Virus record (IMG/VR): IMGVR_UViG_3300024331_000007
Coordinates: 32,001 to 96,000 of that record
Source of the DNA: a virus
Taxonomy: Duplodnaviria; Caudoviricetes
DNA: 64,000 nt
Direction: 5' to 3' (one strand)
Both the position numbers and the translations under genes were made by a program. Numbering within the stretch: position 1 is the first letter of the stretch; the number at the start of each line of letters is the position of its first letter. The notes beneath the pieces were generated by a model. It had not been told where the DNA came from. It saw only the letters and a list, made by a program, of their open reading frames with translations, and did no database searches. Shown here in pieces: positions 1,925 to 60,052 of the stretch.

Positions 1925-2004
1925 TGGTAGGCGCGGTTGGATTCGAACCAACGACCTGTTTCTTATCAGGAAACTGCTCTGAAACCGGGCTGAGCTACGC
2001 GCCT
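1925..2004 (-). tRNA. tRNA-Ile(GAU)
   Basis: AGGCGCG/CGCGCCT acceptor, CT-GAT-AA loop, GTTCGAATC, encoded CCA. Confidence 0.92.
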
Positions 2005-2010
2005 ATAAAT

Positions 2011-2085
2011 TGGCTGGGGGTGAAGGATTCGAACCCTCATAGACTGATTCAAAGTCAGTCGTCCTAGCCATTGAACGAACCCCCA
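2011..2085 (-). tRNA. tRNA-Gln(UUG)
   Basis: CTGA-CT-TTG-AA-TCAG arm, T-loop TTCGAAT, CCA. Confidence 0.92.
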
Positions 2086-2092
2086 TTAAATT

Positions 2093-2179
2093 TGGTGGAC
2101 AGTAGAGGATTTGAACCTCTAGTTTTGTTATTTACTACCCTTCAGAGGTAGTGCGTCTGCTCTATTCCGCCAACCGCCC
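2093..2179 (-). tRNA. Class II tRNA with Leu-like body; anticodon loop reads UC-UGA-AG
   Basis: GGGCGGT/ACTGTCC acceptor, A73, GCGGAA..AGACGC D-arm, CTACC/GGTAG stem, 14-nt variable region, CCA. Confidence 0.6.
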
Positions 2180-2193
2180 ATATGTTTCTAAAA

Positions 2194-2281
2194 TGGTACA
2201 CAGGGTAGGAGTTGAACCTACAGGATTTTGGTGTTTGCATCTTCTAAAAATGCTGCGTCTACCGACTTCCGCCACCTGTGT
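2194..2281 (-). tRNA. tRNA-Leu(UAG)
   Basis: ACACAGG/CCTGTGT acceptor, TT-TAG-AA loop, long variable region, A73-CCA. Confidence 0.88.
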
Positions 2282-2569
2282 ATAACCTTTCATTTTCAGA
2301 CTGTAGTACCAATTGTCAGCGCATAAAGATTCAAAGTCTTCTGCTTAATTGCCTGAACAACGAAATAAAAACTTTTTGAAGAAGCCAAACCCTCGAACCT
2401 TCTTCGTGCTGGATTCACCTTATACTACCTTCGCACTTTTGTTGTTTCAAGCGAAGCACCGCCATTCTCCAGTTTCCCTTAATATTTTGTCGATCCTGCT
2501 TTCTGATTTACATCAATGCCTATCTTTTTCAAGTGCCGCTGGTGTGCAGAGGAAACCTCGACAAAATTT

Positions 2570-2644
2570 TGGTAGCGCGTAAGGGAGTCGAACCCTTCTT
2601 CGCAGATTGAAAGTCTACTGTCCTAACCGATAGACGAACACGCC
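2570..2644 (-). tRNA. tRNA-Glu(UUC)
   Basis: CT-TTC-AA loop, TTCGACT T-loop, CCA. Confidence 0.9.
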
Positions 2645-2653
2645 ATATAAACT

Positions 2654-2737
2654 TGGTAACGTAGAAGGGGATCGAACCCTCTTGTCCGAAGACGCCAGAT
2701 TGAAAGTCTGGTGACCTGCCAATTAGTCATCTACGTC
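2654..2737 (-). tRNA. tRNA-Glu(UUC) with extra variable-arm hairpin
   Basis: CCAGA-CT-TTC-AA-TCTGG, variable region CGTCTTCGGACAA, CCA. Confidence 0.8.
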
Positions 2738-2746
2738 ACATAATCT

Positions 2747-2822
2747 TGGTAGTCCCAACGGGATTCGAACCCGTATTTCTTGTCTGAGAAACAAGCTGCC
2801 TAAACCATTAGCTGATAGGACC
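2747..2822 (-). tRNA. tRNA-Glu(CUC)
   Basis: CTTGT-TT-CTC-AG-ACAAG, TTCGAAT, CCA. Confidence 0.88.
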
Positions 2823-2841
2823 ATATTGCTCAATATTTATC

Positions 2842-2943
2842 GGCCCGTAGAAGGTATTGCACCTCCATCCTTCAAGTGGTCCGTAAAAACCAGTATGAAG
2901 GACAATCGCTCCGCAGTTTACGCTACGTTCAATATACGGGACA
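2842..2943 (-). ncRNA. tRNA-like RNA, no assignable anticodon
   Basis: CCCGTA/TACGGG acceptor-like stem, GGAGG-TGCAATA-CCTTC T-arm, extended central arm TCCTTCA/TGAAGGA. Confidence 0.4.
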
Positions 2944-2957
2944 TCTTGTTACTAAAG

Positions 2958-3030
2958 GCCGAGGGCTTGGGATTTCACAAGGTTCCGCGTGGGTCATGAC
3001 TCCCACAGTCGTCTATCCTTCCCTCTTGGC
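2958..3030 (-). ncRNA. Small structured, tRNA-like RNA
   Basis: GCC..GAGGG/CCCTCGGC closing stem, GTGGG/CCCAC and CTTG/CAAG hairpins, located between tRNA genes. Confidence 0.3.
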
Positions 3031-3037
3031 AATAATT

Positions 3038-3111
3038 CGGTAACGGCTGGACTCGAACCATGCGCTGCCCCCTTTAGCGGGGAGTGCTCAACCTGCTACA
3101 CCACAATTACT
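3038..3111 (-). pseudogene. Degenerate tRNA with CUA at the centre of the anticodon loop
   Basis: D-arm GTGT/GCAC, CTCCC-CG-CTA-AA-GGGGG, TGG-TTCGAGT-CCA; weak acceptor, no CCA end. Confidence 0.45.
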
Positions 3112-3217
3112 TACTTTATCGCCTCAACTTTCAAAACTAAACTTTGCTGGATGGTTTGTTCCATCTGTTAGTTGGATGGAGTCCTGACACTGGTTCCAGC
3201 GACCAGTTCAAATATGT

Positions 3218-3302
3218 TGGCAGGGGTGACAGGGATCGAACCTGCTATGAGTTTCCTCGCCAGTTTTGGAGACTGGTGTCGTACCATTACGACTACACCC
3301 CT
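3218..3302 (-). tRNA. tRNA-Trp(CCA) with extra variable-arm hairpin
   Basis: AGGGGTG/CACCCCT, G73, CCAGT-CT-CCA-AA-ACTGG, GAG-GAAA-CTC extra arm. Confidence 0.82.
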
Positions 3303-3312
3303 ATAAAATCTA

Positions 3313-3402
3313 TGGCGGGAGATGAAGGACTTGAACCTTCGGTGTGAGATTTATCTCATTCGGGTTTGGAGTCCGATGCTGTCGCCGCTGAGCCAATCTC
3401 CC
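3313..3402 (-). tRNA. Class II tRNA (Ser-like body) with CCA anticodon
   Basis: GGGAGAT/ATCTCCC, G73, CT-CCA-AA loop, 19-nt variable arm TGAGA-TAAA-TCTCA. Confidence 0.75.
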
Positions 3403-3405
3403 GTA

Positions 3406-3648
3406 TTAACCTTCAAACTTTTCCAGAATTTCCTCACCCATTCCAACTTTGATAAGTTCTTCTGCTCTTGCAATTCCTTTGACTTTTGCCTCTTCCTTGG
3501 TTACGTAACCTTCGGAAAGTATCGTCATTTGAAACCATGCTTTCGGTTTGGCTGTTTTGTAATGACCTCTCAATGCCCATCCCTTTTTGGTATCTGGCGC
3601 ATCGAATGTATAGATCAGGTTAGACCAAAACTCGTCAAACGATTCCAT
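3406..3648 (-). CDS. Hypothetical protein
   Basis: 80-aa ORF within the tRNA cluster. Confidence 0.6.
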   Translation of the reverse strand: MESFDEFWSNLIYTFDAPDTKKGWALRGHYKTAKPKAWFQMTILSEGYVTKEEAKVKGIARAEELIKVGMGEEILEKFEG

Positions 3649-3659
3649 GTGTTTCCTTT

Positions 3660-3791
3660 CTACTTGGTAAGATTATCAAAGAATATCTTCATTTTCTCAA
3701 AATGTTCTTTGCAAAGATTAAATCCTTGCAATTTGTGGTCGCCTGTCTTATTGCATTCTGGTAAATCACAAATCGCGTTCTTCTTTGACAT
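3660..3791 (-). CDS. 43-aa Cys/His protein (not in ORF track)
   Basis: MSKKNAICDLPECNKTGDHKLQGFNLCKEHFEKMKIFFDNLTK with GAGG RBS. Confidence 0.5.
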   Translation of the reverse strand: MSKKNAICDLPECNKTGDHKLQGFNLCKEHFEKMKIFFDNLTK

Positions 3792-3862
3792 AATACCTCT
3801 AAACTTATGGGATAAGGACAATGCGAGTGTCGTTATCCCTGCATCTGTTGAATCATCGCATA

Positions 3863-3934
3863 ACAGGTAAGCAGGAATTGAACCTACTTTTCTGGCTCCA
3901 ATCGCCAGTGTCCTAGCCGATAGACGATTACCCT
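3863..3934 (-). pseudogene. Degenerate Gln-like tRNA (loop GA-TTG-GA, no CCA)
   Basis: Intact D-arm, CTGGC/GCCAG stem and T-arm; A at position 33; 3' CCA absent. Confidence 0.5.
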
Positions 3935-3956
3935 AATTCAACAAACCTAAAACTTT

Positions 3957-3976
3957 TGGCGGTCCCGACGAGATTT
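3957..3976 (-). pseudogene. Orphan 3' fragment of a tRNA (T-stem, acceptor strand, CCA), Asp-like
   Basis: Reads AAAT-CTCGT-CGGGACC-G-CCA and breaks in the T-loop next to the endonuclease gene. Confidence 0.6.
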
Positions 3977-4001
3977 ATTTGGTATTTTGATAAATATTGA
4001 T

Positions 4002-4646
4002 ATGCCCAATACCGCCAATCTCGTTTGTGATTATTGCAATTCAACTTTTGTTAGAACATCTAAAGATATCGCATCATCCCGAATCGCTAATTCTAAATCA
4101 AAATTCTGTTCTCGAACATGTATGGGATTATCCAATATAACAACGAAAACGGTTACGTGTTTACAATGTAACAAACTCTTTCAAAAACAAGCACATCGAA
4201 TTAAAAAATCACCTAATCATTTTTGTGATCGTTCATGCTCAGCCAAATATCACAATGTTCATAAAACTATTGGAACTCGGCGTTCAAAACTTGAAATTTT
4301 TCTGGAATCTAAACTTCGTAAGTCATATCCAGAATTGAAACTCCTGTGCAATGATAAATCTGCCATTAATTCAGAACTCGATTTCTACTTCCCAGAGTTA
4401 CAACTTGCAATAGAATTAAACGGAATACTCCATTTTGAACCCATTTATGGTAATAGCAAACTGACTCAAATTCAATCGAATGATACTAAGAAATCCTTTT
4501 TATGTCATCAGCAGCATATCAATCTTGCTGTTATCGACTGCTCTACATATTCTCATCTAACTGAAAAAGTTAAAAACAAATATTGGAACATTGTTAATAA
4601 CCTTTTAGCAAATATGGCGGGGAATATGGGTAACGATCCCACCTGA
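4002..4646 (+). CDS. Free-standing endonuclease: Zn-finger repeats plus DUF559/Vsr-like PD-(D/E)xK domain
   Basis: Repeated CxxC...FCSRxC; ELDFYFPELQLAIELNGILH; likely start MPNT 5 nt after TAAATA. Confidence 0.75.
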   Translation: MPNTANLVCDYCNSTFVRTSKDIASSRIANSKSKFCSRTCMGLSNITTKTVTCLQCNKLFQKQAHRIKKSPNHFCDRSCSAKYHNVHKTIGTRRSKLEIFLESKLRKSYPELKLLCNDKSAINSELDFYFPELQLAIELNGILHFEPIYGNSKLTQIQSNDTKKSFLCHQQHINLAVIDCSTYSHLTEKVKNKYWNIVNNLLANMAGNMGNDPT

Positions 4647-4694
4647 TATTCCTGATCGACAGTCAGGCAACCACTCCATGCAGTTCCATTCCCC
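4615..4694 (-). tRNA. tRNA-Asp(GUC), divergent T-loop
   Basis: GGGGAAT/ATTCCCC, G73, CCTGA-CT-GTC-GA-TCAGG, T-loop ATCGTTA, CCA; overlaps the endonuclease 3' end. Confidence 0.75.
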
Positions 4695-4708
4695 GTAATT
4701 CTAAAATT

Positions 4709-4783
4709 TGGCTCACCCCCTCAGAGTCGAACTGAGAACCAATGCCTTAACAGGGCACCGCTCTGCCATTGAGCTAGAGGTGA
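4709..4783 (-). tRNA. tRNA-Asn(GUU)
   Basis: TGCC-CT-GTT-AA-GGCA, TTCGACT, GCCA. Confidence 0.9.
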
Positions 4784-4800
4784 ACATTTAAACCGTATTA

Positions 4801-5097
4801 CTAATCTCTATCATACTTTGTTTTCTTGTTGAATACAAAACCTTCTTTTGAAACATGCTCGTATTTACCATCAACTATCTTATACGATGCATCACTTTGA
4901 TCTTCATTCCAGTGTCTATTGCAAACTGGGCAATCAAACTCTATCCAATACGAATCGTCGTTGCGATCCCAATTTCCGCTATTGCCTTTGTACTCTCCAA
5001 CTAAACCTTCGTGTGGACAGTTGTCTTGGATGTGCGCTTCTAATTTTCTAAGTTCGGTAATACTCCATCTCAACTTTTGTAGTTCTTGTATTGTCAT
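4801..5097 (-). CDS. Hypothetical protein (CPH...CPVC)
   Basis: 98-aa ORF. Confidence 0.65.
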   Translation of the reverse strand: MTIQELQKLRWSITELRKLEAHIQDNCPHEGLVGEYKGNSGNWDRNDDSYWIEFDCPVCNRHWNEDQSDASYKIVDGKYEHVSKEGFVFNKKTKYDRD

Positions 5098-5099
5098 AT

Positions 5100-5519
5100 T
5101 TAATCTTTACAAGTAAATTCTAAGTAATCCTTTGCCCAACGAATATGCTTTTGTTGCTTACTTTTTGGTGCAATTAATCTTAATCGAGTTTCATATGTTG
5201 TTGCCTCGTTGACATCAACAAAATAAACTTGATTCAACTCTCTACAGTATACAGCAAATAATTCAATCTGTCCACGATAGTTTTGTTTTTTACCATTTGC
5301 TCTATGAACTGTTGAACTGCACGAATCAAAGCTAACAAATGATTGATCTTTTCCTAATCTACCCGTCTTACACTGAATACGAACAAATACACCATTATTG
5401 TCAACTACTAAATCATACCGGTTTTTATCTCCAAATGGAGTTAATACGGTTTTGCCTAGTTTTAGCAATTCAGCAACTACAACTGCTTGAGTTATATCGC
5501 CTATTTCCTTAGTATTCAT
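5100..5519 (-). CDS. PD-(D/E)xK endonuclease of the group-I-intron-associated type (PDDEXK_5 / I-Ssp6803I-like), free-standing
   Basis: KEIGDITQ...PFGDKNRYDLVVD...RIQCKT; start MNTKE with GGAAG RBS. Confidence 0.8.
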   Translation of the reverse strand: MNTKEIGDITQAVVVAELLKLGKTVLTPFGDKNRYDLVVDNNGVFVRIQCKTGRLGKDQSFVSFDSCSSTVHRANGKKQNYRGQIELFAVYCRELNQVYFVDVNEATTYETRLRLIAPKSKQQKHIRWAKDYLEFTCKD

Positions 5520-5534
5520 TTCTTCCTTTAAAAT

Positions 5535-5609
5535 TGGCTGAACAGGTGGGAGTCGAACCCACATCGTCTTGATTAACAGTCAAGCGTAATGCCGTTATAC
5601 TACCGTTCA
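5535..5609 (-). tRNA. tRNA-Asn(GUU), second copy
   Basis: CTTGA-CT-GTT-AA-TCAAG, TTCGACT, GCCA. Confidence 0.9.
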
Positions 5610-5622
5610 ATAAAACTAAACT

Positions 5623-5698
5623 TGGTGGGCAGCATGGGATTCGAACCCACGTCGATTTGCTTAAGAGGCAAACATAATAGCCGCTATACGAACTGCCC
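5623..5698 (-). tRNA. tRNA-Lys(CUU)
   Basis: TTTGC-CT-CTT-AA-GCAAA, TTCGAAT, ACCA. Confidence 0.9.
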
Positions 5699-5713
5699 AT
5701 TTGAAACTAAACT

Positions 5714-5789
5714 TGGTGCATTCGGAGGGATTTGAACCCCCATCAATTCGATTAAAAGTCGAGTATAATGTCCGTTATACGACGAATGC
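5714..5789 (-). tRNA. tRNA-Lys(UUU)
   Basis: TCGA-CT-TTT-AA-TCGA, TTCAAAT, ACCA. Confidence 0.9.
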
Positions 5790-6185
5790 ATTTTTTAAAT
5801 ACTTACTTGCCGCAACAAATAGTTTAGGATCATCATTAAATAATCCAAGAACTCTATTACAGGTATTACAGATTGCTCCTCTAAACTTTAATGTTTTGTG
5901 GTCGTGATCTAAAACCAATTTCTTTACTTTTCGATTACAAATCTTACAGACGCCATTGGCATCCTTTTTAATCTTTTCTATCGTTTCGTTTTTTGTACCT
6001 AATTTCTCTCGCCAACGATAGATTTCACGTTTTTCCTTTGTGCCGCTATAAAAACTTTGGGAAACTCGACAACACCAAACTTTCTTGTTCGATTTTAGAA
6101 CAATTGGTATGTATCCACAATGTTCGCATATCGCCATTTTATTTTGAACATCGATGTTTGTTAGTTTATGTACCCGTTTACCCAT
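5775..6185 (-). CDS. Endonuclease VII-like HNH nuclease
   Basis: CKIC...LVLDHDHKT..FRGAICNTCNRVLGLFNDDP; 3' end overlaps tRNA-Lys 5' end. Confidence 0.82.
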   Translation of the reverse strand: MGKRVHKLTNIDVQNKMAICEHCGYIPIVLKSNKKVWCCRVSQSFYSGTKEKREIYRWREKLGTKNETIEKIKKDANGVCKICNRKVKKLVLDHDHKTLKFRGAICNTCNRVLGLFNDDPKLFVAASKYLKNAFVV

Positions 6186-6202
6186 TTTCTTCCTAAAATG
6201 TA

Positions 6203-6226
6203 AAATCCTCGCCGTAGCGAGGATTT
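6203..6226. terminator. Hairpin, possible terminator or regulatory stem
   Basis: AAATCCTCGC-CGTA-GCGAGGATTT, perfect 10-bp stem. Confidence 0.45.
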
Positions 6227-6247
6227 GGAAAATACACAAATCCTCGC

Positions 6248-6340
6248 TTACAGCTTATCTTCCTGATTATTCCACACGGATGCGGAATCAATCTTGTTGA
6301 TCTGTTGTTTATTAATCGAGATGTTGCTAATGTTCTTCAT
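6248..6340 (-). CDS. 30-aa peptide, probably leaderless late gene
   Basis: MKNISNISINKQQINKIDSASVWNNQEDKL; TAAATA-N5-ATG. Confidence 0.4.
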   Translation of the reverse strand: MKNISNISINKQQINKIDSASVWNNQEDKL

Positions 6341-6429
6341 GACTGTATTTATCTTCTCACAATGCTTTCTTTTTGTCAAGCACAAAATTTATTTAATTTT
6401 TGCTGGACTGAACGCTGTCTGCATGATTA

Positions 6430-6458
6430 TTTATACAGCTAAGCAGTCTCTTTGTCAA
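6430..6458 (-). promoter_or_regulatory. Promoter facing the tRNA cluster (TTGACA-17-TATAAA; includes TATAAATA)
   Basis: Sigma70 consensus overlapping the T4 late consensus. Confidence 0.65.
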
Positions 6459-6509
6459 GCGTAAATGTATTTATCCTTGAAAAAAGTTTTTGGATCAGTT
6501 TTGGCAAAA

Positions 6510-7007
6510 TTATTTTTGGTCCTGTGCCGCCCTCTGATACGCCTTGTCAGCGATTCTCTGGAACAATGCCTTTGTTTTCTCGAAGATAGACTCAAATGCC
6601 CAACGAATTGGATCGTTCAGTAATGTCCATGCCGCATTCCACGGCCAAAAAACCATCCACCCAATGATTCGATCTGAATGTTCGTCAACCATTACGGTAG
6701 ACGGCTTCTTCGAGTATGCAAAATCTTTCTTTGCCTTTTTCTTGATAAAGACGGACCACTTGCCGATTGAATATACTACGCCAGCCAACAGATATAAAAA
6801 TAGAGAGAAAATAAATTCTTTGGGATTGTGGCGAAGCCATGTGAAGATCGGAACGTTTCCGAAAAATTGAAGAATCAATGCGGTTGCAATTGCCACTCCT
6901 GTTGCCCAACCGGGCGATGCTTCTTCAGAGAGGCAAACAAGTATGGTGAATGAAACGACTATCAACGCCCAAAACCAAAACGTACCTACGATGAATAATT
7001 CGAACAT
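6510..7007 (-). CDS. Hypothetical multi-pass membrane protein
   Basis: Several hydrophobic segments; W/P-rich WMVFWPWN. Confidence 0.75.
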   Translation of the reverse strand: MFELFIVGTFWFWALIVVSFTILVCLSEEASPGWATGVAIATALILQFFGNVPIFTWLRHNPKEFIFSLFLYLLAGVVYSIGKWSVFIKKKAKKDFAYSKKPSTVMVDEHSDRIIGWMVFWPWNAAWTLLNDPIRWAFESIFEKTKALFQRIADKAYQRAAQDQK

Positions 7008-7183
7008 GTCTTTTCCTTTTCTGTGTTATTTTTGTTTTCGATTACTTCCACTAGTTTCTTTGTGTTTTCGATTACTTCCACTAGTTTCTTTGTGTTTTCG
7101 ATTACTTCCACTAGTTTCTTTGTGTTTTCATCGAGACGCCAACCGATGATAATTGCAGCGATAATTATTGAAACTGGTATCAT
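6986..7183 (-). CDS. Small membrane-anchored coiled-coil protein with (ENTKKLVEVI)3
   Basis: ATGA overlap with the Nudix stop; N-terminal TM segment then three exact 10-aa repeats. Confidence 0.6.
   Translation of the reverse strand: MIPVSIIIAAIIIGWRLDENTKKLVEVIENTKKLVEVIENTKKLVEVIENKNNTEKEKTCSNYSS
7033..7129. repeat. 30-bp tandem repeat, 3.2 copies
   Basis: TGTTTTCGATTACTTCCACTAGTTTCTTTG x3 exact, no spacers. Confidence 0.95.
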
Positions 7184-7596
7184 AACCACCCCAACTTTCT
7201 GAATTTTTCGATACACGGCTTCCATATTTTTGGCTGTAAATTCTTCAATTCTGAAATTGGATACCACTTCCAGTTTCCAATTTTGTGCGGTTCATTTTCT
7301 TTTGGTTCGCCGCTGACATATTGCCCCACATAATAGACAGTGAGATAATGCTTGTCTTCGTCTGGGTGCAAATCTTCTGTGAATCCAATCAACTCAACTT
7401 TGCCAACTTTTAAGCCGCACTCTTCCAACGCCTCTCTACGTGCGCATTCTTCGGTGGTTTCGTACAGTTCAAGTTTTCCACCGGGTAAACTTAATTTGCC
7501 ATTCCCAAAATCTGATTCGCGGATTCCAAGCAAAATGGAATCATCTTTCTGAATGATCAATCCTACTCCGATTTGTGGTCGTTTGATTTTTGACAT
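7180..7596 (-). CDS. Nudix hydrolase
   Basis: Nudix box GGKLELYETTEECARREALEECGL. Confidence 0.92.
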   Translation of the reverse strand: MSKIKRPQIGVGLIIQKDDSILLGIRESDFGNGKLSLPGGKLELYETTEECARREALEECGLKVGKVELIGFTEDLHPDEDKHYLTVYYVGQYVSGEPKENEPHKIGNWKWYPISELKNLQPKIWKPCIEKFRKLGWL

Positions 7597-7610
7597 GATT
7601 GACTTTGTTT

Positions 7611-7700
7611 TGGGATAATCTGGAGAGGGACTCGAACCCTATGATTATTTGGGTAGTTAAAAGCTACCTTGGCTCCCCGCCAGCGCAACAGATTATCCCA
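7611..7700 (-). ncRNA. tRNA-Lys(UUU)-like RNA with 11-12-bp terminal helix
   Basis: TGGGATAATCTG/CAGATTATCCCA, GGTAG-CT-TTT-AA-CTACC, AGGG-TTCGAGT-CCCT. Confidence 0.65.
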
Positions 7701-7712
7701 AACTTGTTAAAT

Positions 7713-7874
7713 TTACTTTGATAACTTACCTATGATTCTATCAGCAATAATAACAATTACCAATCCGAAAAGAGCCGTCGCGCCAAAAAGATTTGGACTA
7801 TGAGATGCCACGCCTACGGCAATCGCCGTTAGGAACATACAAAATAGGCACAATAAAAAATCTCGAATGTCCAT
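7713..7874 (-). CDS. Small membrane protein
   Basis: Two TM segments from MDIRDF. Confidence 0.5.
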   Translation of the reverse strand: MDIRDFLLCLFCMFLTAIAVGVASHSPNLFGATALFGLVIVIIADRIIGKLSK

Positions 7875-7875
7875 G

Positions 7876-8088
7876 TTAGTATCCGCTTGGAATTGTGATT
7901 GGAAGGCCGAGGGTACGAATAACCTTTGCCATTCCACGAGCGCGTTCTCGGGCCATGTTAGCTCCGCTGGAATTGCCATCGAAAGAATTTTTGACAGTAT
8001 CGACCAAACGAGAGAACTCGGCTTGAACTTCAGTCACGGATTCAAGAGTTACTTTGACTGGCTGTGTTGCAATTGGATTTTTAGGCAT
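7876..8088 (-). CDS. Hypothetical protein
   Basis: 70-aa ORF with GAAAGGGAAATC RBS. Confidence 0.65.
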   Translation of the reverse strand: MPKNPIATQPVKVTLESVTEVQAEFSRLVDTVKNSFDGNSSGANMARERARGMAKVIRTLGLPITIPSGY

Positions 8089-8102
8089 GATTTCCCTTTC
8101 TG

Positions 8103-8399
8103 TTATACGTCAAGTTTTTGGGTATGCTTGTGTACAAACTCAAAATTACAGACTGTGCAGCGACCCTTGTAAAAACTGTAATATTCGCCGTTCTCAACGC
8201 CTTGACTGTAATCTTCGCGGAATGTTTGTGGTTCAGATTCGTCTACTTTTTTCGCCTCTGCAAGTTTTTCGATAAGAACATTGTATGCCTTAATCGAAAC
8301 TTTTCCATAGGCTTCATTTAACGCCGTTCTCGCGGCCTCGACTTTGTTTGTGTATGTCTGAGTACATTTTGGGCAAACTGTCCAATTATCGGCCCTCAT
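8103..8399 (-). CDS. Hypothetical Zn-ribbon protein
   Basis: CPKC...CTVC; GAAAGGGAATCG RBS. Confidence 0.7.
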   Translation of the reverse strand: MRADNWTVCPKCTQTYTNKVEAARTALNEAYGKVSIKAYNVLIEKLAEAKKVDESEPQTFREDYSQGVENGEYYSFYKGRCTVCNFEFVHKHTQKLDV

Positions 8400-8414
8400 C
8401 GATTCCCTTTCTGA

Positions 8415-8651
8415 TTATTTCGGCGGATAAATGTGAGGATGTTTCAGGATCGATTCAGCAGCATGAATCCATGCGGCTTCTGGTGTTTTGTCAGGCCATG
8501 CAAACCGAAGTCCTTTGGCCGCAAAAATTTCGTAGTTAAAAATACGAACAGGAACAGGACTCGGCGTTGAATACTCATCAAAAAATTGCTTCACAACTTT
8601 TGCTTTTGGAAAATGATTGCGAACAATTTTGATTGCTTCAATCTTTGTCAT
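8415..8651 (-). CDS. Hypothetical protein
   Basis: 78-aa ORF; same GAAAGGGAATCG RBS. Confidence 0.65.
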   Translation of the reverse strand: MTKIEAIKIVRNHFPKAKVVKQFFDEYSTPSPVPVRIFNYEIFAAKGLRFAWPDKTPEAAWIHAAESILKHPHIYPPK

Positions 8652-8965
8652 CGATTCCCTTTCAAAGTTTCAGCAATGAGTTGGATTGATTACCAACTTG
8701 ACTTGTACTGCAACGAATCCCGATAGCATAGCCCCTGATTGTTAGGGAAAATTTTTTAGGACCTTTTCGAACGATCCTACTATGTATCTAACCAGCCCAT
8801 CGTTGCCCCATAGATTGTATGCAAGCGGTATATATGCCAGCTTTGTTGGCTCCGCTGATATTTGCTAGATGCCCATTGTCGCCAATGGCAATATCAATAC
8901 AATTTCAGTCGTCCTATGAAACGGCAGTCCAACACTGCCAGTCATTGCGATACAAACCAAGTATA

Positions 8966-9154
8966 CTAAATATCCACTCGGATGTCAAATAAATACGGAC
9001 AATTTAGTAAAGGCTTTAGAATCACTGTCATATGGACACTTTGAATCCCATTTTCATTTATCTGAATGTAGTCCACCGTCTCAGGATCGATATTTGATTG
9101 CTTGAGATAATCTGTTACGGCTTTCGCCATCTCCTGCTCATTACGCATGTTCAT
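8966..9154 (-). CDS. Hypothetical protein (early, probably leaderless)
   Basis: TTGACT-17-TATCAT 6 nt before MNMRNE. Confidence 0.55.
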   Translation of the reverse strand: MNMRNEQEMAKAVTDYLKQSNIDPETVDYIQINENGIQSVHMTVILKPLLNCPYLFDIRVDI

Positions 9155-9216
9155 TGGCGAATGATAGCAACTTTCGCTGGAAAAGTCAATTGTCATAAAT
9201 ATCAGTGAGGATTGCT

Positions 9217-9888
9217 ATGCTTCTACACGAAATCGAAACAATCGACTTCATTTCAAAATCCAACCAAACCTTCAATACCCTCAAAAAAGATTGGGCGGAA
9301 TTGATAAAGAAGTTTCGTCCCTACCTTCTTGGTACTATTAGTGGAAAGTTTAGAATAGGTGCGGTGGATGGGTCATTGAAGGGGACCTCCTCGAATAAAC
9401 TTGTTGCTGTTTATGATCGACAGGCCAATAAATATGCAGCTTTTTTGCAGCTTGAGAAGTTTTCAGCCAGTGCATATGCTGAATCAGTTGTAGCAGCCGA
9501 CCCTGCCTATCGCGGAATCAATCTTCCTGTACAGTTGTATACATTTCTTGTTCAAGAAGAGGGAATGATTATCGTATCCGATGAAGTACAGACGTTGGGT
9601 GCTCGTTCGATATGGGAAAAGTTGGCCAAGACACCCGGTATTGGCGTGTACGGATATAATGACAAAACTGGAAAAGTTTTCCAAGTAGACATGGACGATC
9701 TATTCAATGAAGATGTGTATGACGAGGGTTTGAATCAGGAAATCGAACATCTTGAGAATGAAGAATACGAATTGCAAGACACAAGAGACGAACGATATTT
9801 TCAGATAAAGAAAGAACTTGAAAAGTTATACGATGCTCGTACCGAAACCAATCATCATATTCGCCTGTTCGCCGCGAGGGCAAAGTAA
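9217..9888 (+). CDS. GNAT-like fold protein, paralog 1
   Basis: VAADPAYRGINLPVQLY...SDEVQTLGARSIWEKL; late promoter TAAATA 9196-9201. Confidence 0.6.
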   Translation: MLLHEIETIDFISKSNQTFNTLKKDWAELIKKFRPYLLGTISGKFRIGAVDGSLKGTSSNKLVAVYDRQANKYAAFLQLEKFSASAYAESVVAADPAYRGINLPVQLYTFLVQEEGMIIVSDEVQTLGARSIWEKLAKTPGIGVYGYNDKTGKVFQVDMDDLFNEDVYDEGLNQEIEHLENEEYELQDTRDERYFQIKKELEKLYDARTETNHHIRLFAARAK

Positions 9889-10613
9889 TGTTGCTTACTG
9901 AGATTGGTCATGCGGGTCATGTAAGAAAAAACGGCGGAATGTTTGCCGAAATTATGCATGATTACATCTCTTTTAGCAACCGCCACAATAAAAAATATAA
10001 TGTGGAAGGAAAAATCGGTCGATTTGAAATTCGTAGCCTGCGAGTGAAACCATTTTCTTCTACTTATCTTTACTATACCTTATTTGACACTAAAAGAAAT
10101 TGTTATGCCGCCGCCGTTACACTGGATCAATTTGGTAGAAATGCTCGAAGTTGGCAGGTTGCTTCGTTGGGTGTCGAGACTGAATATCAGGGGATGAATT
10201 TATCAGTTATGATGTATTCGTGGATGATAACGAAAAATAATTTAATTTTAATAACTGGCATGGAACAATCTGCTGGAGGTAAATTGGTTTGGGAGAGGCT
10301 TGCACAAGTACCCGGAATTTTTATATTTGGTTACGATGTGGAGGATAAAAAGTCATTTCAAGTTGACCAAAATGATTTATTTAATGAAGATGTGTATGCT
10401 GACGAACTAATTAATGAAAGAGATTATTTAGAAAAAGAGTATAACCGAATAGAAAATCAGTTGGATAATTTAGACCCTGATGTTGTTCCAGAATCTAAAA
10501 TAAAAGCTCTGGAAAAAACAATGAACGATTTGTCCGCGCAGATAAACTCACTGGATACTGATATCACAAAAGTAGAAGATTATATTCGTCTTGTCGCAAT
10601 AAAAAAGCATTGA
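9888..10613 (+). CDS. GNAT-like fold protein, paralog 2
   Basis: GVETEYQGMNLSVMMY...EQSAGGKLVWERL; shares FQVDxxDLFNEDVY with paralog 1. Confidence 0.6.
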   Translation: MLLTEIGHAGHVRKNGGMFAEIMHDYISFSNRHNKKYNVEGKIGRFEIRSLRVKPFSSTYLYYTLFDTKRNCYAAAVTLDQFGRNARSWQVASLGVETEYQGMNLSVMMYSWMITKNNLILITGMEQSAGGKLVWERLAQVPGIFIFGYDVEDKKSFQVDQNDLFNEDVYADELINERDYLEKEYNRIENQLDNLDPDVVPESKIKALEKTMNDLSAQINSLDTDITKVEDYIRLVAIKKH

Positions 10614-10638
10614 CATCCTTTGTTTTCACTGCTATACT
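10610..10638 (+). promoter_or_regulatory. Sigma70-type promoter
   Basis: TTGACA-N17-TATACT. Confidence 0.75.
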
Positions 10639-10668
10639 TGGCTCACATATCAAATTTGGGCGTGTTTT

Positions 10669-10863
10669 ATGCTGCTTACGCAAGGTCGCTGGTCACAAAT
10701 TCTCAGTCTGGAGCCAATTGGCTTCCGCAAAGTAAAGTTTGGGTGGTACAGCGTGGCGTTAAAAGACGACCTTGCAATTTACACACTCATTTCACCAAAA
10801 TTTGAAACCAAATGGGACGCAAGACGTTGGTTCAAAGAAAACCGAAAAATTCAAACTAAATAA
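10669..10863 (+). CDS. Hypothetical protein
   Basis: 64-aa ORF after the promoter; start uncertain. Confidence 0.4.
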   Translation: MLLTQGRWSQILSLEPIGFRKVKFGWYSVALKDDLAIYTLISPKFETKWDARRWFKENRKIQTK

Positions 10864-10877
10864 CAATACAGATTTAT

Positions 10878-10953
10878 GGCGGATATAGTTCAATGGCAGA
10901 ACGCTTGCCTGTGGCGCAAGTTGTTGAGGGTTCGAGTCCCTCTATCCGCCCCA
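10878..10953 (+). tRNA. tRNA-His(GUG)
   Basis: G-1:C73, CTTGC-CT-GTG-GC-GCAAG, TTCGAGT, CCA. Confidence 0.92.
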
Positions 10954-18564: not shown

Positions 18565-18578
18565 AGGCAAATATTCCA

Positions 18579-18649
18579 TAAATACAGAGTGCGATTCGCG
18601 GTGCTACAACACCCAATCGCCCTAACACTGATGTGGAGTGTCAGCTATG
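18579..18649 (+). promoter_or_regulatory. Conserved structured leader of homing endonuclease gene (copy A)
   Basis: TAAATA, two hairpins, RBS in the second; covaries with copies at 52.7 and 59.3 kb. Confidence 0.75.
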
Positions 18650-19294
18650 TCTATTTACATATCTAAGTTTTCTCACGACAAGAAGTTCTATGTCTATGAA
18701 TATCTGCGTCTTAATAAATCAATGCATGGTAATGTCGGAACTCCATACTATGTCGGAAAGGGCACAAGAAAGCGACTTTACGAAAAACACCAAAAAGGAA
18801 TTTCAGTTCCAAACGAAACCGAAAGAATACTAATCGTGGCAAATAATATGAATGAGGCAGATGCATTTCAACTTGAAATGTTGTTAATTTATTTGTATGG
18901 GAGAATTGATCTCGGAACTGGGTGTTTACGAAATAAAACTTTTGGTGGTGATGGCACTTTTGGTTTACTTGTAACACAAGAAGCAAAAAGAAAACAATCA
19001 TTAGCTAAATTGGGAACTAAACATTCCGAAGCAACTAAAAAGAAGATGGCAGATACGCGGAAAGGAGAAAAGAACACCTTTTTCGGTAAATCACATTCAG
19101 ATCAAAGTAAAAAGATGATTTCCAAAAATAATGGAAAAGGTCAAGCAAAAGTAACTCCAGATCAAGTAAGGGAAATACGTCGATTATATGCTGAAACAGA
19201 TATGACACAACGCCAAATCGGACAAATTTTTCACATTGCAGAATCAACCACCAATCAAATAATCGTCAAAAGATGGTGGAAAGACATAGATTAA
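18647..19294 (+). CDS. GIY-YIG homing endonuclease with NUMOD3 repeats and C-terminal HTH
   Basis: FYVYEY...PYYVGKG, YGRIDLGTGCLRNKTFGGDG, KHSEATKKKM. Confidence 0.88.
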   Translation: MSIYISKFSHDKKFYVYEYLRLNKSMHGNVGTPYYVGKGTRKRLYEKHQKGISVPNETERILIVANNMNEADAFQLEMLLIYLYGRIDLGTGCLRNKTFGGDGTFGLLVTQEAKRKQSLAKLGTKHSEATKKKMADTRKGEKNTFFGKSHSDQSKKMISKNNGKGQAKVTPDQVREIRRLYAETDMTQRQIGQIFHIAESTTNQIIVKRWWKDID

Positions 19295-39572: not shown

Positions 39573-40514
39573 TCAAACAAAGTTTGTTGTCAATTGATAA
39601 TATAGAAATTTCTCAAGTAGAACTGGAATGGTTTTATGGTCCCAATACGGAATGATAAGCAGAGGAATATTATTTTTAATACAATATGTTTCTTTGATTT
39701 TATCGCGCTCCTGAATTTGGCGAAACATTTCATCATCAGAAACAGATTTGCTGCCAAAATTGAATTTATCATAATGCTGTTTGCCATGAAATTCAATCAT
39801 CCCGCACAACTTTCCATTGCGAAATAATCCGAAATCGAATGGTAGTGTATTGACATTACGGCAATTCTTTATTCGATACTGTGGCTGAAACGAAATGCCT
39901 AATCTTTCTAGTTCTCTCCTAATTGATCGTTCGCCTTTAGATTCTCTACACGTAGGGCATCCTTGCCCATTTAGATGCGCGGATGGTTCTTGTTTGAAGT
40001 CTCCGTGCTTAGGACATACAATTAGAACTTTAGTATGCATATCAACGTAGACGCATTTTTCATATGAAAATTTTGAATTGTGTTTTTTATTACCTCTATC
40101 GATGAATATCGGCAGTGTCAATTTATCGTCGCGTCTTGCGCAAATCAGACACCCATATCCTTGTAAATGCGCCGTTGCTTCTTGCTTGAAATCTCCGTGA
40201 TCTGGGCAAGTTATGATTACAGAATTATTAGAGCCTGTGTAAGATGTTCTTTCGTAAGTAAATTTATAATGATGAGTTTTTCTTGCCTTCTCTATAAATT
40301 CTTGATTACTCATCTTTGAAGTTCCGCCGCATTTTGGACAACCTTGACCATTGATATGATTCTTTGGAAGTTGCCAGAAATCTCCGTGGGTCGGACAACC
40401 AATACAAATTTTGGTGTGATTATTGAGATAGACTACTTTATCGTAATTGTGTTTGTTCCGATGGGTAGGTTCTATCGACCCAATAAATTTTTGTAAGTTT
40501 GATCTACTAATCAT
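39573..40514 (-). CDS. Homing endonuclease: DUF723-like repeats plus PD-(D/E)xK domain
   Basis: Three CPxHGDFxQ...HL.G.GC repeats; LPFDFG..IEFHGKQH. Confidence 0.8.
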   Translation of the reverse strand: MISRSNLQKFIGSIEPTHRNKHNYDKVVYLNNHTKICIGCPTHGDFWQLPKNHINGQGCPKCGGTSKMSNQEFIEKARKTHHYKFTYERTSYTGSNNSVIITCPDHGDFKQEATAHLQGYGCLICARRDDKLTLPIFIDRGNKKHNSKFSYEKCVYVDMHTKVLIVCPKHGDFKQEPSAHLNGQGCPTCRESKGERSIRRELERLGISFQPQYRIKNCRNVNTLPFDFGLFRNGKLCGMIEFHGKQHYDKFNFGSKSVSDDEMFRQIQERDKIKETYCIKNNIPLLIIPYWDHKTIPVLLEKFLYYQLTTNFV

Positions 40515-51457: not shown

Positions 51458-52069
51458 ATGAAAAAGTTCAGCGAATTTTTGGCGGAAAGTGTCCGTAATT
51501 ACGAGTATAATGTCAAGTTGGCTTTCAAGCCTGACAATGAAATGATGGGTGCAATCGAAAACGCATTGCAGAAGTACAGCCTTGTGTCGATTACCGCACC
51601 AAAAAGTCTCCCAATCCAGCGCGTTGACAAGGACTTTCCCGGCTTCAAAGCTCCAGAAACCTATGTGTTCACCGTTGAACTTGCATACCCTTCCAGCGCA
51701 AACATGATTCGCCACACCATCGCCTCGGTTGGTTTCCAGTTTGAACAGGTTGCCGTTAGCTCACCTCAGCATGACGCCAGCATGGATAAGGAAGATAATG
51801 ATGTTGCTGCAAATACCAGCGACAAAGCATTACTTGATCGCCCATATGATCCACAGAACAACGAAGAAATCAGCGGTGAGAATTTCGGCGATAATTATAA
51901 TGATCGTCTAGTTAAGAACAGCATCGGCAGCACAGATCAGATGATACCTCGCGAATTTAAGCGCACAAATGGCAAAACTTTGAACGATAAAGAATTTAAA
52001 ATTGGCAAGGAGTCTGCTGTGGGGTCTAAACAGAATAAGATTCCTCCTGTGAAGTCTTTTGCTCGTTAA
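51458..52069 (+). CDS. Late protein with T4 CTS-like N-terminus (MKKFSEFLAE)
   Basis: TAAATA plus GAGG RBS; start matches the MKTYQEFIAE pattern. Confidence 0.7.
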   Translation: MKKFSEFLAESVRNYEYNVKLAFKPDNEMMGAIENALQKYSLVSITAPKSLPIQRVDKDFPGFKAPETYVFTVELAYPSSANMIRHTIASVGFQFEQVAVSSPQHDASMDKEDNDVAANTSDKALLDRPYDPQNNEEISGENFGDNYNDRLVKNSIGSTDQMIPREFKRTNGKTLNDKEFKIGKESAVGSKQNKIPPVKSFAR

Positions 52070-52712
52070 ATTTTTGCAAGCGAATTGCGCGGTTTCTTTT
52101 TGAATTAGGATTATTTTCGCCTATAAAATTAGCACGAAGTCGAGCTTTGTATTCATCCGAATGAGTTTTGCCGAACATTGGATTTTTATGGCCAATTTTA
52201 CTGTCGGATATTTTCTTTTTGGCTGCATCCGTTCGTTTTTGTCCAGTTCTCGATTTGGACATTTTCTTACGAGTTCCTTCAGAAAATTTCATTCCTTTTG
52301 TTGTGGCAATTGGTTTCTTTCCTTTCTTAACATCTGACATCTTTTTCTTAGCCACCGCGCTCATGGTTTTTCCTATAGCCGATTCTCGCATTTTTCTTTT
52401 AGTTTCTTCAGAATGTTTCCATCCACTTATTCCTTGACCGCCATTTGTTCTATTTCTTAGACAGCCAGTTCCTAAATCAAGTCTACCAAAAATTCTAATA
52501 AGGGCTATTTCTAGCGAACAGGCTTCTTTATTTGATAAACCATCAAAAATCTTGAGTATAAATTTTTTGTCTTTTGGTGGTTTAGCTCCACAATTGGTAT
52601 GTGGATGATGTGTTCTATATTTCTTTCCTTTACCAATATAATAAGGTGTTCCTGCCTCTCCGTTTGGTGAAGAGTGCTCTCTTAGGTAAGCATACACATA
52701 ATAAATAGACAT
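52026..52712 (-). CDS. GIY-YIG homing endonuclease with NUMOD3 repeats
   Basis: YYVYAY..PYYIGKG, FGRLDLGTGCLRNRTNGG, KHSEETKRKM. Confidence 0.9.
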   Translation of the reverse strand: MSIYYVYAYLREHSSPNGEAGTPYYIGKGKKYRTHHPHTNCGAKPPKDKKFILKIFDGLSNKEACSLEIALIRIFGRLDLGTGCLRNRTNGGQGISGWKHSEETKRKMRESAIGKTMSAVAKKKMSDVKKGKKPIATTKGMKFSEGTRKKMSKSRTGQKRTDAAKKKISDSKIGHKNPMFGKTHSDEYKARLRANFIGENNPNSKRNRAIRLQKFNEQKTSQEESYSV

Positions 52713-52777
52713 GGCTGATACTCCACTTTAGTATTAGAGCGATTGGGCCTGCCAGCCGCGAACCGCATAAGTATTTA
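52710..52777 (-). promoter_or_regulatory. Conserved structured leader of homing endonuclease gene (copy B)
   Basis: TAAATA-GCGGTTCGCGG..CCCAATCGC-CTAATACT..GGAGTATCAG-ATG. Confidence 0.75.
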
Positions 52778-52819
52778 TCTCAAAATCCACAGGTTACGCT
52801 AAATATTACTGAGGTTTCT

Positions 52820-58909: not shown

Positions 58910-59307
58910 TGAGAGAAATTTCAAAACTAAGACCTCGACGCTTTCCTGTTAATGAGGCAAAACAGGATATGATGGTCGCTGATAACGAAATAACTAATGG
59001 GTTAGATAGCGATCAGTCTGCTGCTTTACCAAATGCAAGATGGTATGATGGCGGGACGCCATATTTTCATTATAGAGCAATGGTTATGGCTGCAAGTTTG
59101 CCAAATCCACCTAAAATCGGCGTCTCGTCGTTCTCCCAAGATATGCCGTTTTCTTCTGGTTATACTCAAGCCGATGATGACATAATTTCAGCAGCAGCAA
59201 AACTGTGTGGCTATCCGGGTAAACGGCTAAGTAATTCAAGAAGTATGGAAAGTGATGAAATACATAAGGTTTCGCCTAATAATCACAATTCTGGTAAGCA
59301 TAAATAA
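58909..59307 (+). CDS. Hypothetical late protein
   Basis: 132 aa, TAATG-coupled. Confidence 0.7.
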   Translation: MREISKLRPRRFPVNEAKQDMMVADNEITNGLDSDQSAALPNARWYDGGTPYFHYRAMVMAASLPNPPKIGVSSFSQDMPFSSGYTQADDDIISAAAKLCGYPGKRLSNSRSMESDEIHKVSPNNHNSGKHK

Positions 59308-59364
59308 TATCGGTCGCGGATCACTAGTCCCACCGATTCTAATGCATACGGAGCATCAGCTATG
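59301..59364 (+). promoter_or_regulatory. Conserved structured leader of homing endonuclease gene (copy C)
   Basis: TAAATA-ATCGGTCGCGG..CCCACCGAT-CTAATGC..GGAGCATCAG-ATG. Confidence 0.75.
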
Positions 59365-60048
59365 CCTATTTACTGCCAAGAATTTCTTGATCTAATCCAA
59401 TCTATTTCCTTTGATAACAAATATTTAAAATGGTATATAACTCTATGTGCCCAAGCGTCCTTGCGAGGATCAGATCGTTCTGTCATTAATCATAACATTG
59501 GATATGTCGAACAACATCACATTATTCCGAAATCTTTAAAAATTGTTAACGAAAAAGTTGATAAAAATTTAGTATACTTAACACCCAGAGAGCATTTTCT
59601 TTGTCATAGATTTTTAGCTAAGATGTTCAGTAATTCGTTATGGAAGAAGAAAATGAACGCTGCGGTTTTCATGATGTGTAATACTACTTACATGATTTCT
59701 AGTCGGCAATATGAATTTCTCAGATTCCAGCATTTCAAAACAAATATACCATCGATACATACTCGTAAGAAAATGGCAGCTAGTCTGAAAAACCTTATAT
59801 GGATTAAAAGAGAACAAACAAATGAATTTTTGCGAGTTTCATCGGAGAAAGCTCAGGAATTTTACAAACTAGGTTTTATTAAAGGCAGAAAACCTCGAAT
59901 CAATGCTCCAGTACATTCCATAGCAAATAGAAGAAAAATATCAATGTCCCATATACTACGAGTTAAAATTACTTGTGAATATTGTGGTTTGGTGTGTTCA
60001 AAACACATGCATACGAGATGGCATGGGAACAAATGTAAGGCTAAATAA
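59362..60048 (+). CDS. HNH-type homing endonuclease
   Basis: YVEQHHIIPKS..NLVYLTPREHFLCHRFL; C-terminal CEYC..WHG.KC. Confidence 0.82.
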   Translation: MPIYCQEFLDLIQSISFDNKYLKWYITLCAQASLRGSDRSVINHNIGYVEQHHIIPKSLKIVNEKVDKNLVYLTPREHFLCHRFLAKMFSNSLWKKKMNAAVFMMCNTTYMISSRQYEFLRFQHFKTNIPSIHTRKKMAASLKNLIWIKREQTNEFLRVSSEKAQEFYKLGFIKGRKPRINAPVHSIANRRKISMSHILRVKITCEYCGLVCSKHMHTRWHGNKCKAK

Positions 60049-60052
60049 CTAT

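Follow-up and report, generated by a model that had tools for sequence, protein, structure and literature searches.

Three homing endonuclease genes in a 64,000-nt stretch of phage DNA, here called the window (bases 32001–96000 of the 359,890-bp IMG/VR virus record IMGVR_UViG_3300024331_000007, 41% G+C), are headed by copies of a portable 5' cassette of ca. 85–95 bp, which probably encodes a cis-antisense RNA of ca. 65 nt that would throttle the nuclease. The cassette recurs in the phage genome, at least about 100 contigs of uncultured phages carry it, its stems covary from copy to copy, and structural selection acts on the strand opposite to the nuclease gene. It carries late-promoter-like motifs on both strands at conserved spacings, and it accompanies nuclease genes of unrelated families. 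From this arrangement we infer that an antisense RNA is transcribed, terminates at a U-rich tail, and represses the gene. Among sequencing runs, the best match for the DNA of the window was a soil metagenome run, and the large terminase of the phage has ca. 50% identity with its counterparts in PA5oct, Phosso, and Atu_ph07.

It is a standing puzzle how a phage puts up with dozens of selfish nucleases; the 360-kb genome studied here holds ca. 33 nuclease-like loci found by tblastn, 15 of them with the cassette. The hairpin-plus-late-promoter device of T4 is, to our knowledge, the only worked-out answer. If the proposed reading is true, the antisense cassette represents a second, unreported solution, common to the whole family of contigs. 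Cis-antisense control, known from transposons and temperate phages, would then extend to the homing endonucleases of lytic phages, in the form of a small, modular cassette built on the T4-type late promoter motif.

The cassette, its family, and the genes it heads

An earlier note, made from the window alone, described a covarying RNA leader shared by three nuclease genes, at 18579 (+), 52777 (−), and 59301 (+). All three repeats were read at these sites, and the layout given for them is borne out: TAAATA, the first arm of stem 1 (6 bp), CGC, GG-stem 2-CC, C, the second arm of stem 1, a CTA…CAG hairpin containing GGAG, C, 0–3 nt, and ATG. The repetition goes far beyond chance, and the exact 15-mer GGAGNNTCAGCYATG is confined within the window to the three repeat sites. 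The extent given for the first copy, 18579–18655, was right at its start but too short at its end, the conserved unit reaching the TATTTA at 18652–18657. The CGC/C internal loop is likewise present, but it is not invariant, as CAC/C and CAC/T variants occur in the wider family.

In the complete record the covariance model R1 finds 15 copies (E values from 1e-12 to 1e-19), while a loose regular expression alone finds 11. A degenerate pattern matched at least 118 stretches in IMG/VR, and ca. 105 of those listed carry every feature of the cassette; applied to these loci, R1 gave 101 matches in 100 loci, 7 of them falling outside the search pattern. The cassette family thus comprises at least about 100 uncultured phage contigs. 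In Rfam, tRNAs alone reach the gathering score in the window, and at E values up to 10 the element draws two chance-level matches. Neither megablast nor blastn found the cassette in 50,697 cultured-phage records, and R1 gave no match in nine phage genomes (PA5oct, Phosso, Atu_ph07, Vibrio phage 2.275.O, S-PM2, T4, S-CRM01, HTVC008M, and Aeh1). The commonest cassette variant is also found on short contigs in three Bacteroidota metagenome-assembled genomes (Mucilaginibacter, a Bacteroidetes bacterium, and Haliscomenobacter); these contigs are probably mis-binned phage DNA, and they give a weak hint at the hosts.

The earlier note took two of the window genes for GIY-YIG genes and one for an HNH gene; copies 1 and 2 probably head Seg-like GIY-YIG-type genes, and copy 3 heads an HNH-type gene. 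The GIY-YIG assignment is based on sequence motifs, NUMOD3, PHROG, and weak PDB profile matches: the YVY..Y, YY(I/V)GKG, R, E, and N motifs are invariant, phrog_314 (“homing endonuclease”) is matched, and NUMOD3 is clear in both genes (1e-10 to 3e-18), the Pfam GIY-YIG threshold is not reached by either protein, and the PDB profile matches, which are to GIY-YIG proteins, are weak (E 0.05–0.8). The copy 3 protein matches PHROG families annotated as “homing endonuclease” (phrog_655) and “HNH endonuclease” (phrog_12434) and has HH..N..H-type residues, with no match in Pfam and no sequence match in PDB.

The association with unrelated nuclease families, first seen for GIY-YIG and HNH genes, extends to zinc-finger nuclease genes. 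The 15 cassettes of the genome head ten Seg-like GIY-YIG-type genes, two HNH-type genes, two other GIY-type or unassigned genes, and one DUF723/DUF4379 zinc-finger nuclease gene; the IMG/VR copies are found before SegE-type and classical GIY-YIG domains, and also before remnants with NUMOD3 only. About one in ten cassettes heads a decayed or very short reading frame and still scores well, and every examined cassette heads a nuclease gene or its remnant. The identity of the cassette is uncoupled from the protein family (rank correlation rho 0.15): cassettes 96% alike stand before proteins 26% alike, and HNH and GIY-YIG genes carry cassettes 82% alike. BLAST single-linkage clustering of the downstream proteins merged unrelated nucleases through shared modules and was not used.

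The strand of the conserved fold

The covariation noticed among the window copies holds in a larger alignment of 96 distinct model-aligned copies. Read on the antisense strand, 98.4% of its cells are paired and 15 of the 19 pairs show double changes, the double-change cells numbering 284 compared with 61 in shuffles; in slid controls 35–45% of the cells are paired. Helix 1, the 5' hairpin of the antisense reading, is paired in 98.7% of the cells and has double changes in 5 pairs.

The strand of the fold is indicated by the wobble pairs. In 114 distinct copies, parsed with G·U and A·C treated equally when the stems were extended, there are 3 G·U pairs in the stems read as mRNA and 190 in the stems read as the opposite strand; 113 of the 190 lie at one position fixed by the search patterns (CTA…CAG), and the fair count is 77 against 3. 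In the alignment A3 the antisense reading has 111 wobble pairs and 95.2% of the cells paired, the sense reading 16 and 86.3%, respectively. The antisense fold is the more stable one in 105 of the 114 copies, with a mean of −17.6 kcal/mol as against −13.4 kcal/mol for the sense fold (Wilcoxon p = 3e-19). The ca. 25-fold asymmetry does not appear attributable to mutation bias, as non-template deamination would push in the opposite direction. With the wobbles almost confined to the opposite strand, the view of the earlier note that the fold is selected as an mRNA leader could not be upheld. The A-C mismatch recorded there is indeed conserved, and because the wobble asymmetry favours the antisense strand, it corresponds to a conserved G·U of the opposite-strand RNA. 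A covarying “leader” can thus belong to the opposite strand, and here it was the A-C mismatch that gave it away.

The internal loop is redrawn in the same way. On the antisense strand CGC/C becomes a single base pair between two bulged G; in the 96 copies this pair, which is absent from the model, is GC in 91, GU in 4, and AU in 1, and it is never unpaired. The CAC/C and CAC/T variants agree with the drawing of one pair and two bulges. In the window, the antisense and sense folds have −22.6 and −18.5 kcal/mol in copy 1, and −18.7 and −14.6 kcal/mol in copy 3. Copy 2, alone among the window copies, has a sense-strand G·U in stem 1, which weakens its antisense 3' hairpin.

These data bear directly on a sense-strand explanation, in which the element would be a cis-regulatory leader whose mRNA hairpins hide the ribosome site or bind a protein, as a variant of the T4 hairpins. 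The nuclease genes of T4 and Aeh1 are controlled by hairpins of the ribosome-site-hiding kind (PMC2988022), hairpin 2 encloses half of GGAG in all copies, the sense RNA folds into a mirror structure too, and most sense transcripts, if they follow the T4 start rule, would have their 5' end at the stem 1 base and retain both hairpins. However, G·U is nearly absent from the sense reading and A·C abundant (the 3 against 190 given above), and hairpin 2, which contains one or two A·C mismatches in the sense RNA, is missing from the minimum-energy folds of all three window mRNAs, downstream sequence included. Moreover, with both arms downstream of the late promoter, the arm-dropping trick of T4 is impossible, and the TATTTA found after the ATG is left without an account. 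A sense-strand leader is considered unlikely. The protein sensing suggested in the earlier note might still be compatible with the conserved bulged-G helix.

A signal acting at the DNA level, with inverted repeats forming single-stranded DNA hairpins or a recombination hot-spot moving the cassette and no role for RNA, would agree with the exchange of cassettes between unrelated genes and with a junction whose place, a few codons past the start of the gene, is fixed. Recombination, however, requires homology and not compensatory changes in stems, and the stems of the cassette vary between copies with their pairing kept. The strand-specific tolerance of G·T-type pairs and the presence of promoter and tail motifs at transcript-like distances fit an RNA, and an explanation confined to DNA is very improbable.

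Facing late-promoter motifs and the predicted antisense RNA

The T4-type late promoter motif that the earlier note placed ahead of the hairpins is carried by the element itself, (A/C)TAAATA being located 2–6 nt upstream of stem 1 in all 15 genome copies. In this genome 55–67% of the TAAATA occurrences are intergenic, compared with a baseline of 26%, and a gene start lies within 120 nt downstream of 42–50% of them, compared with 9–13% of control hexamers; at promoter-like sites the preceding base is A in 55%, C in 35%, and G in 8%. The late promoters of T4 occupy positions −13 to −6, and Aeh1 uses CTAAATA (PMC1524935). Among the genes of the phage is one for a late sigma factor of the gp55-like kind (276 aa; genome positions 283758–284588, minus strand; phrog_12791, 1e-55), with 27% identity to T4 gp55 over 84 residues.

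The second motif, TATTTA, is the reverse complement of TAAATA, and of 112 copies 98 have it behind the start codon. The motif is separated from the start codon by 0, 1, or 2 nt in 11, 6, and 71 copies, respectively, and so occurs in all three reading frames (the genome copy at 324,6xx has it in a different frame), whereas its distance from the CAG at the base of the hairpin is 5–8 nt, with 6 nt in 66 of the 98 copies. Since all three frames are used and the distance to the hairpin base is fixed, TATTTA acts at the nucleotide level. Thus, as far as sequence goes, an antisense TAAATA in codons 2–4 provides a putative internal promoter facing the gene's own. The M-x-I-Y start shared by unrelated nucleases would be explained by this motif, which imposes it on the protein. 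Six cassettes (L031, L045, L089, L129, L114, and L029) have GTCAAC-AAAAAT in place of the sense TAAATA and keep the antisense TATTTA, and their antisense 3' hairpin is followed by a good U run; they may be without a sense promoter of their own.

By the T4 start rule, the sense mRNA begins at the first base of stem 1 in copies with a 5-nt spacer (60 of 112) and within stem 1 in those with a spacer of 2–3 nt (29 of 112). The earlier proposal that both hairpins are retained in the late mRNA is accordingly right for copies 1 and 2 (spacers of 5–6 nt) and wrong for copy 3, whose spacer of 2 nt would move the start into stem 1. By the same rule the antisense RNA is predicted to start on the G before CUG, 0–3 nt upstream of the ATG, and to cover GGAG and the spacer following it, i.e., the translation initiation region. 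Its 5' end would consist of one or two free bases and an 8-bp hairpin with a 6–7-nt loop, which starts with the CC of the anti-Shine-Dalgarno sequence CUCC; a YUNR motif is found in 62% of these loops compared with 35% of shuffled ones. A one-base linker, the bulged-G 3' hairpin, and the tail follow. U makes up 56% of the 12 nt that follow the 3' hairpin, and the tail takes in the sequence complementary to the sense promoter; where the sense TAAATA is missing, a U run is mostly retained, e.g., AUUUUUGUUGAC. The 5' hairpins of the 15 genome cassettes are all different, some of them sharing stems and differing by 1–3 loop bases; no claim of selected orthogonality is made.

Other roles for the conserved motifs were considered. 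Pairing of TATTTA with the promoter TAAATA in read-through mRNA, forming a three-way junction as in I-TevI, was rejected, since copies without an upstream TAAATA keep TATTTA and six A-U pairs closing a multiloop would be weak. The pseudoknots tried, of CAGC with the stem 2 loop and of the CGC loop with GCG elsewhere, were unconserved by eye, and no repeat of the ribosome site was seen in the hairpin 1 loop of the copies from this genome. As for a repressor site of the RegA type, a search of the genome gave no RegA homologue, which is not evidence of its absence.

The proposed mechanism would operate as follows. The (A/C)TAAATA late promoter, read by the gp55-type sigma factor of the phage, would give the nuclease mRNA, with a leader of ca. 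55 nt bearing GGAG and the ATG. The second late promoter, in codons 2–4 (TATTTA on the coding strand), would fire back towards the first and yield the ca. 65-nt RNA from its start just upstream of the ATG. The perfect 8-bp 5' hairpin of this RNA would display CUCC in its stem and loop, complementary to the Shine-Dalgarno site, and its 3' hairpin, with one conserved pair and two bulged G, would be followed by the U-rich tail overlapping the sense promoter. Being fully complementary to the mRNA leader, the antisense RNA would pair with it loop to loop first, and the pairing would hide the ribosome site and/or mark the duplex for cleavage, keeping the nuclease output low; collision of the two facing promoters may contribute.

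Promoter interference might also be the whole of the effect. Two facing late promoters ca. 75 bp apart would collide or occlude each other, and the folded antisense RNA would be a stable by-product ending in a terminator. The motifs do face each other at a fixed distance, and the antisense tail extends over the sense −10 motif; for coliphage 186, Callen, Shearwin and Egan reportedly described interference in 2004 with facing promoters spaced by 62 bp. A terminator would account for the 3' hairpin but not for a covarying, wobble-tolerant 5' hairpin placed over the ribosome site, and the enrichment of YUNR-type loops (62% versus 35%) would be left over. Interference without a role for the RNA is given a small chance.

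An antisense RNA could also be made and yet act in trans in a protein-bound form, as a decoy, a scaffold, or a specificity factor directed at other cassettes, co-infecting phages, or a host factor. The near-invariant CUG…UAG closing pairs with their G·U and the pair flanked by two bulged G exceed the needs of pairing, well-scoring cassettes are found on decayed or very short frames, and one genome holds 15 copies. The invariance, however, comes in part from ascertainment by the search pattern, as copies outside the pattern vary (CAC, T, GA..UC), and bulges are common in ordinary antisense RNAs. All examined copies head a nuclease gene or its remnant, and no candidate protein partner was identified. 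A trans-acting RNA of this kind seems quite improbable.

Several observations weigh against the antisense repressor. Six of the 15 antisense motifs of this phage read GTAAATA, and these promoters may be weak because G rarely (8%) precedes TAAATA at promoter-like sites. The tail is an imperfect terminator: its U run is interrupted, with four consecutive U in only 30 of 96 copies, and a simple search for terminators gave no call at the copy 1 antisense tail. The conserved CUG…UAG closing pairs and the bulged G go beyond what plain antisense pairing needs. Both promoters are of the late class, and the use of producing mRNA and antisense RNA simultaneously would therefore have to lie in their dosage. 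Copy 2 is slightly more stable as the sense RNA, and the z-scores of single-sequence folding are modest (−0.1 to −1.7); the case therefore rests on the comparison between copies. Finally, the 50,697 records and nine phage genomes searched include no cultured carrier of the cassette, and no RNA runs were listed as carrying the window stretch or the cassette of a 139-kb IMG/VR contig.

A more far-reaching version of the antisense reading is put forward tentatively, as a conjecture that may well fail. In uncultured T4-like and jumbo phages, the cassette of homing endonuclease genes would be a self-contained, exchangeable, two-faced late promoter module whose ca. 65-nt antisense RNA, through its conserved bulged-G helix, recruits a phage or host factor, giving each nuclease its own cognate brake dependent on the copy number of the genome. 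Multicopy inhibition of the IS10 type would then have been invented independently by another class of selfish element, with the first four codons of unrelated nucleases, M-x-I-Y, dictated by the cassette.

Related control systems and the features of the window

The closest functional parallel to the predicted RNA is RNA-OUT of IS10/Tn10, in which a selfish element restrains its own enzyme. The promoter of its 69-nt RNA lies within the 5' part of the gene; the RNA base-pairs with the region of initiation and has an end that reaches into the sense promoter (PMC5006887). The cassette resembles it in the size of a highly structured antisense RNA (ca. 69 nt in IS10, a predicted ca. 65 nt here), in a promoter located inside the 5' end of the gene and facing the gene promoter, and in the predicted complementarity to the translation initiation region with an antisense end overlapping the sense promoter. 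RNA-OUT can act in trans, so that repression can grow with the copy number, and the same might apply here. There is no homology between the two in sequence or structure, and no Rfam family was matched; the likeness is one of functional class and not of descent. The cassette RNA would have two hairpins, that of IS10 has one, and both predicted cassette promoters are of the phage late type. Its overlap with the mRNA would take in the whole ca. 55-nt leader, probably stopping just short of the AUG, and its host gene is a homing endonuclease of a lytic phage, the cassette being shared by unrelated nuclease families.

The late promoter of the T4 device is embedded in the inhibitory hairpin, so that late transcripts come without one of its arms and the ribosome site is freed (PMC2988022). 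The cassette shares with this type of control (I-TevI, I-TevII, I-TevIII, segB, and mobE of Aeh1) its occurrence at GIY-YIG and HNH genes that are free-standing and belong to T4-related phages, an TATAAATA-like late promoter, a ribosome site within an RNA structure, and an apparent aim of low, late expression. It differs in that the late promoter is located upstream of both arms, and in every copy over 30 nt separate it from the arms of the GGAG hairpin. A very stable sense structure over the ribosome site was not found, given the A·C mismatches and the minimum-energy folds, while the cassette fold is selected on the other strand and a second, opposing promoter motif is present.

No antisense RNA control of T4-type homing endonuclease genes is described in the review of these genes (PMC2988022). 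CfrI of cyanophage S-PM2, an antisense RNA of ca. 225 nt opposite F-CphI and psbA (Millard et al. 2010, via PMC2984593 and PMC12197685), is the sole one found described at a homing endonuclease gene of a T4-like phage; it differs from the cassette RNA in its length, in reaching into psbA, and in not being a shared cassette. R1 gave no match in S-PM2 (NC_006820) at E ≤ 0.1, which indicates that CfrI is not a member of the same family. Short cis-antisense RNAs of phages include sar RNA of P22 (68/69 nt) and OOP RNA of lambda (77 nt) (PMC12197685); sar hides a ribosome site and OOP drives RNase III cleavage of its target. Unlike the cassette, these RNAs belong to temperate phages, are transcribed from host sigma-70 promoters, are single-copy, serve lysogeny decisions, and are unlinked to mobile nuclease genes.

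The positions of the cassette features and the genes following them are collected in Table 1.

Table 1. Cassette features and nuclease genes of the three window copies (window coordinates)
Feature	Position	Strand	Remarks
Copy 1, sense late-promoter motif CATAAATA	18577..18584	+	TAAATA at 18579-18584; on the minus strand, part of the U-rich tail of the predicted antisense RNA
Copy 1, predicted antisense RNA, ~67 nt	18579..18646	−	R1 67.9 bits, E 1.2e-16; wobble asymmetry
Copy 1, 5' hairpin of the predicted antisense RNA, covering GGAG	18645-18622	−	
Copy 1, 3' hairpin of the predicted antisense RNA, two bulged G	18620-18591	−	
Copy 1, tail of the predicted antisense RNA	18590-18579	−	
Copy 1, antisense late-promoter motif GTAAATA (TATTTAC on +)	18652..18658	−	inside nuclease codons 2-4
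Copy 1, gene of Seg-like GIY-YIG-type homing endonuclease	18647..19294	+	ATG at 18647; 215 aa; NUMOD3; phrog_314, phrog_15526
Copy 2, sense late-promoter motif GATAAATA	52772..52779	−	TAAATA at 52777-52772
Copy 2, predicted antisense RNA	52713..52778	+	R1 66.1 bits, E 4.3e-16
Copy 2, antisense late-promoter motif ATAAATA	52701..52707	+	
Copy 2, gene of Seg-like GIY-YIG-type homing endonuclease	52026..52712	−	ATG at 52712; 228 aa; NUMOD3
Copy 3, sense late-promoter motif CATAAATA	59299..59306	+	TAAATA at 59301-59306; 2 nt ahead of stem 1
Copy 3, predicted antisense RNA	59297..59361	−	R1 58.9 bits, E 5e-14
Copy 3, antisense late-promoter motif GTAAATA	59367..59373	−	
Copy 3, gene of HNH-type homing endonuclease	59362..60048	+	ATG at 59362; 228 aa; phrog_655 3e-30; phrog_12434 1e-7

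A fourth copy had been thought of just beyond position 64000. The gene found there is a fourth Seg-like GIY-YIG gene (L011), which occupies 63359–64000 on the minus strand of the window and continues to base 96039 of the genome; it has a late promoter but no cassette. The gene comes after a clear hairpin-plus-T terminator, and the motif CATAAATA lies only 5 nt before its likely ATG, a distance at which the T4 start rule predicts a late mRNA with no leader. The layout with the promoter next to the ATG is also found at two cassette-free nuclease genes starting at genome positions 290135 and 205460. Two DUF723-type nuclease genes are located in the window at 39603–40502 (−) and 49949–50893 (+). 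The latter has a sigma-70-like GTATAAT just upstream of its ATG, a box which hints at a different, early mode of expression; no such box was seen at the former.

The HNH gene of copy 3 stops directly at the start of the large terminase gene (both within window positions 59362–61645), a typical homing site beside a conserved late gene. Beside copy 2 there is a reading frame of 1463 aa, at 53136–57527 (+), containing numerous CxxC pairs and long tracts of acidic or lysine-rich composition, and 14 tRNA genes detected in the Rfam scan are clustered at 1928–10950 of the window.

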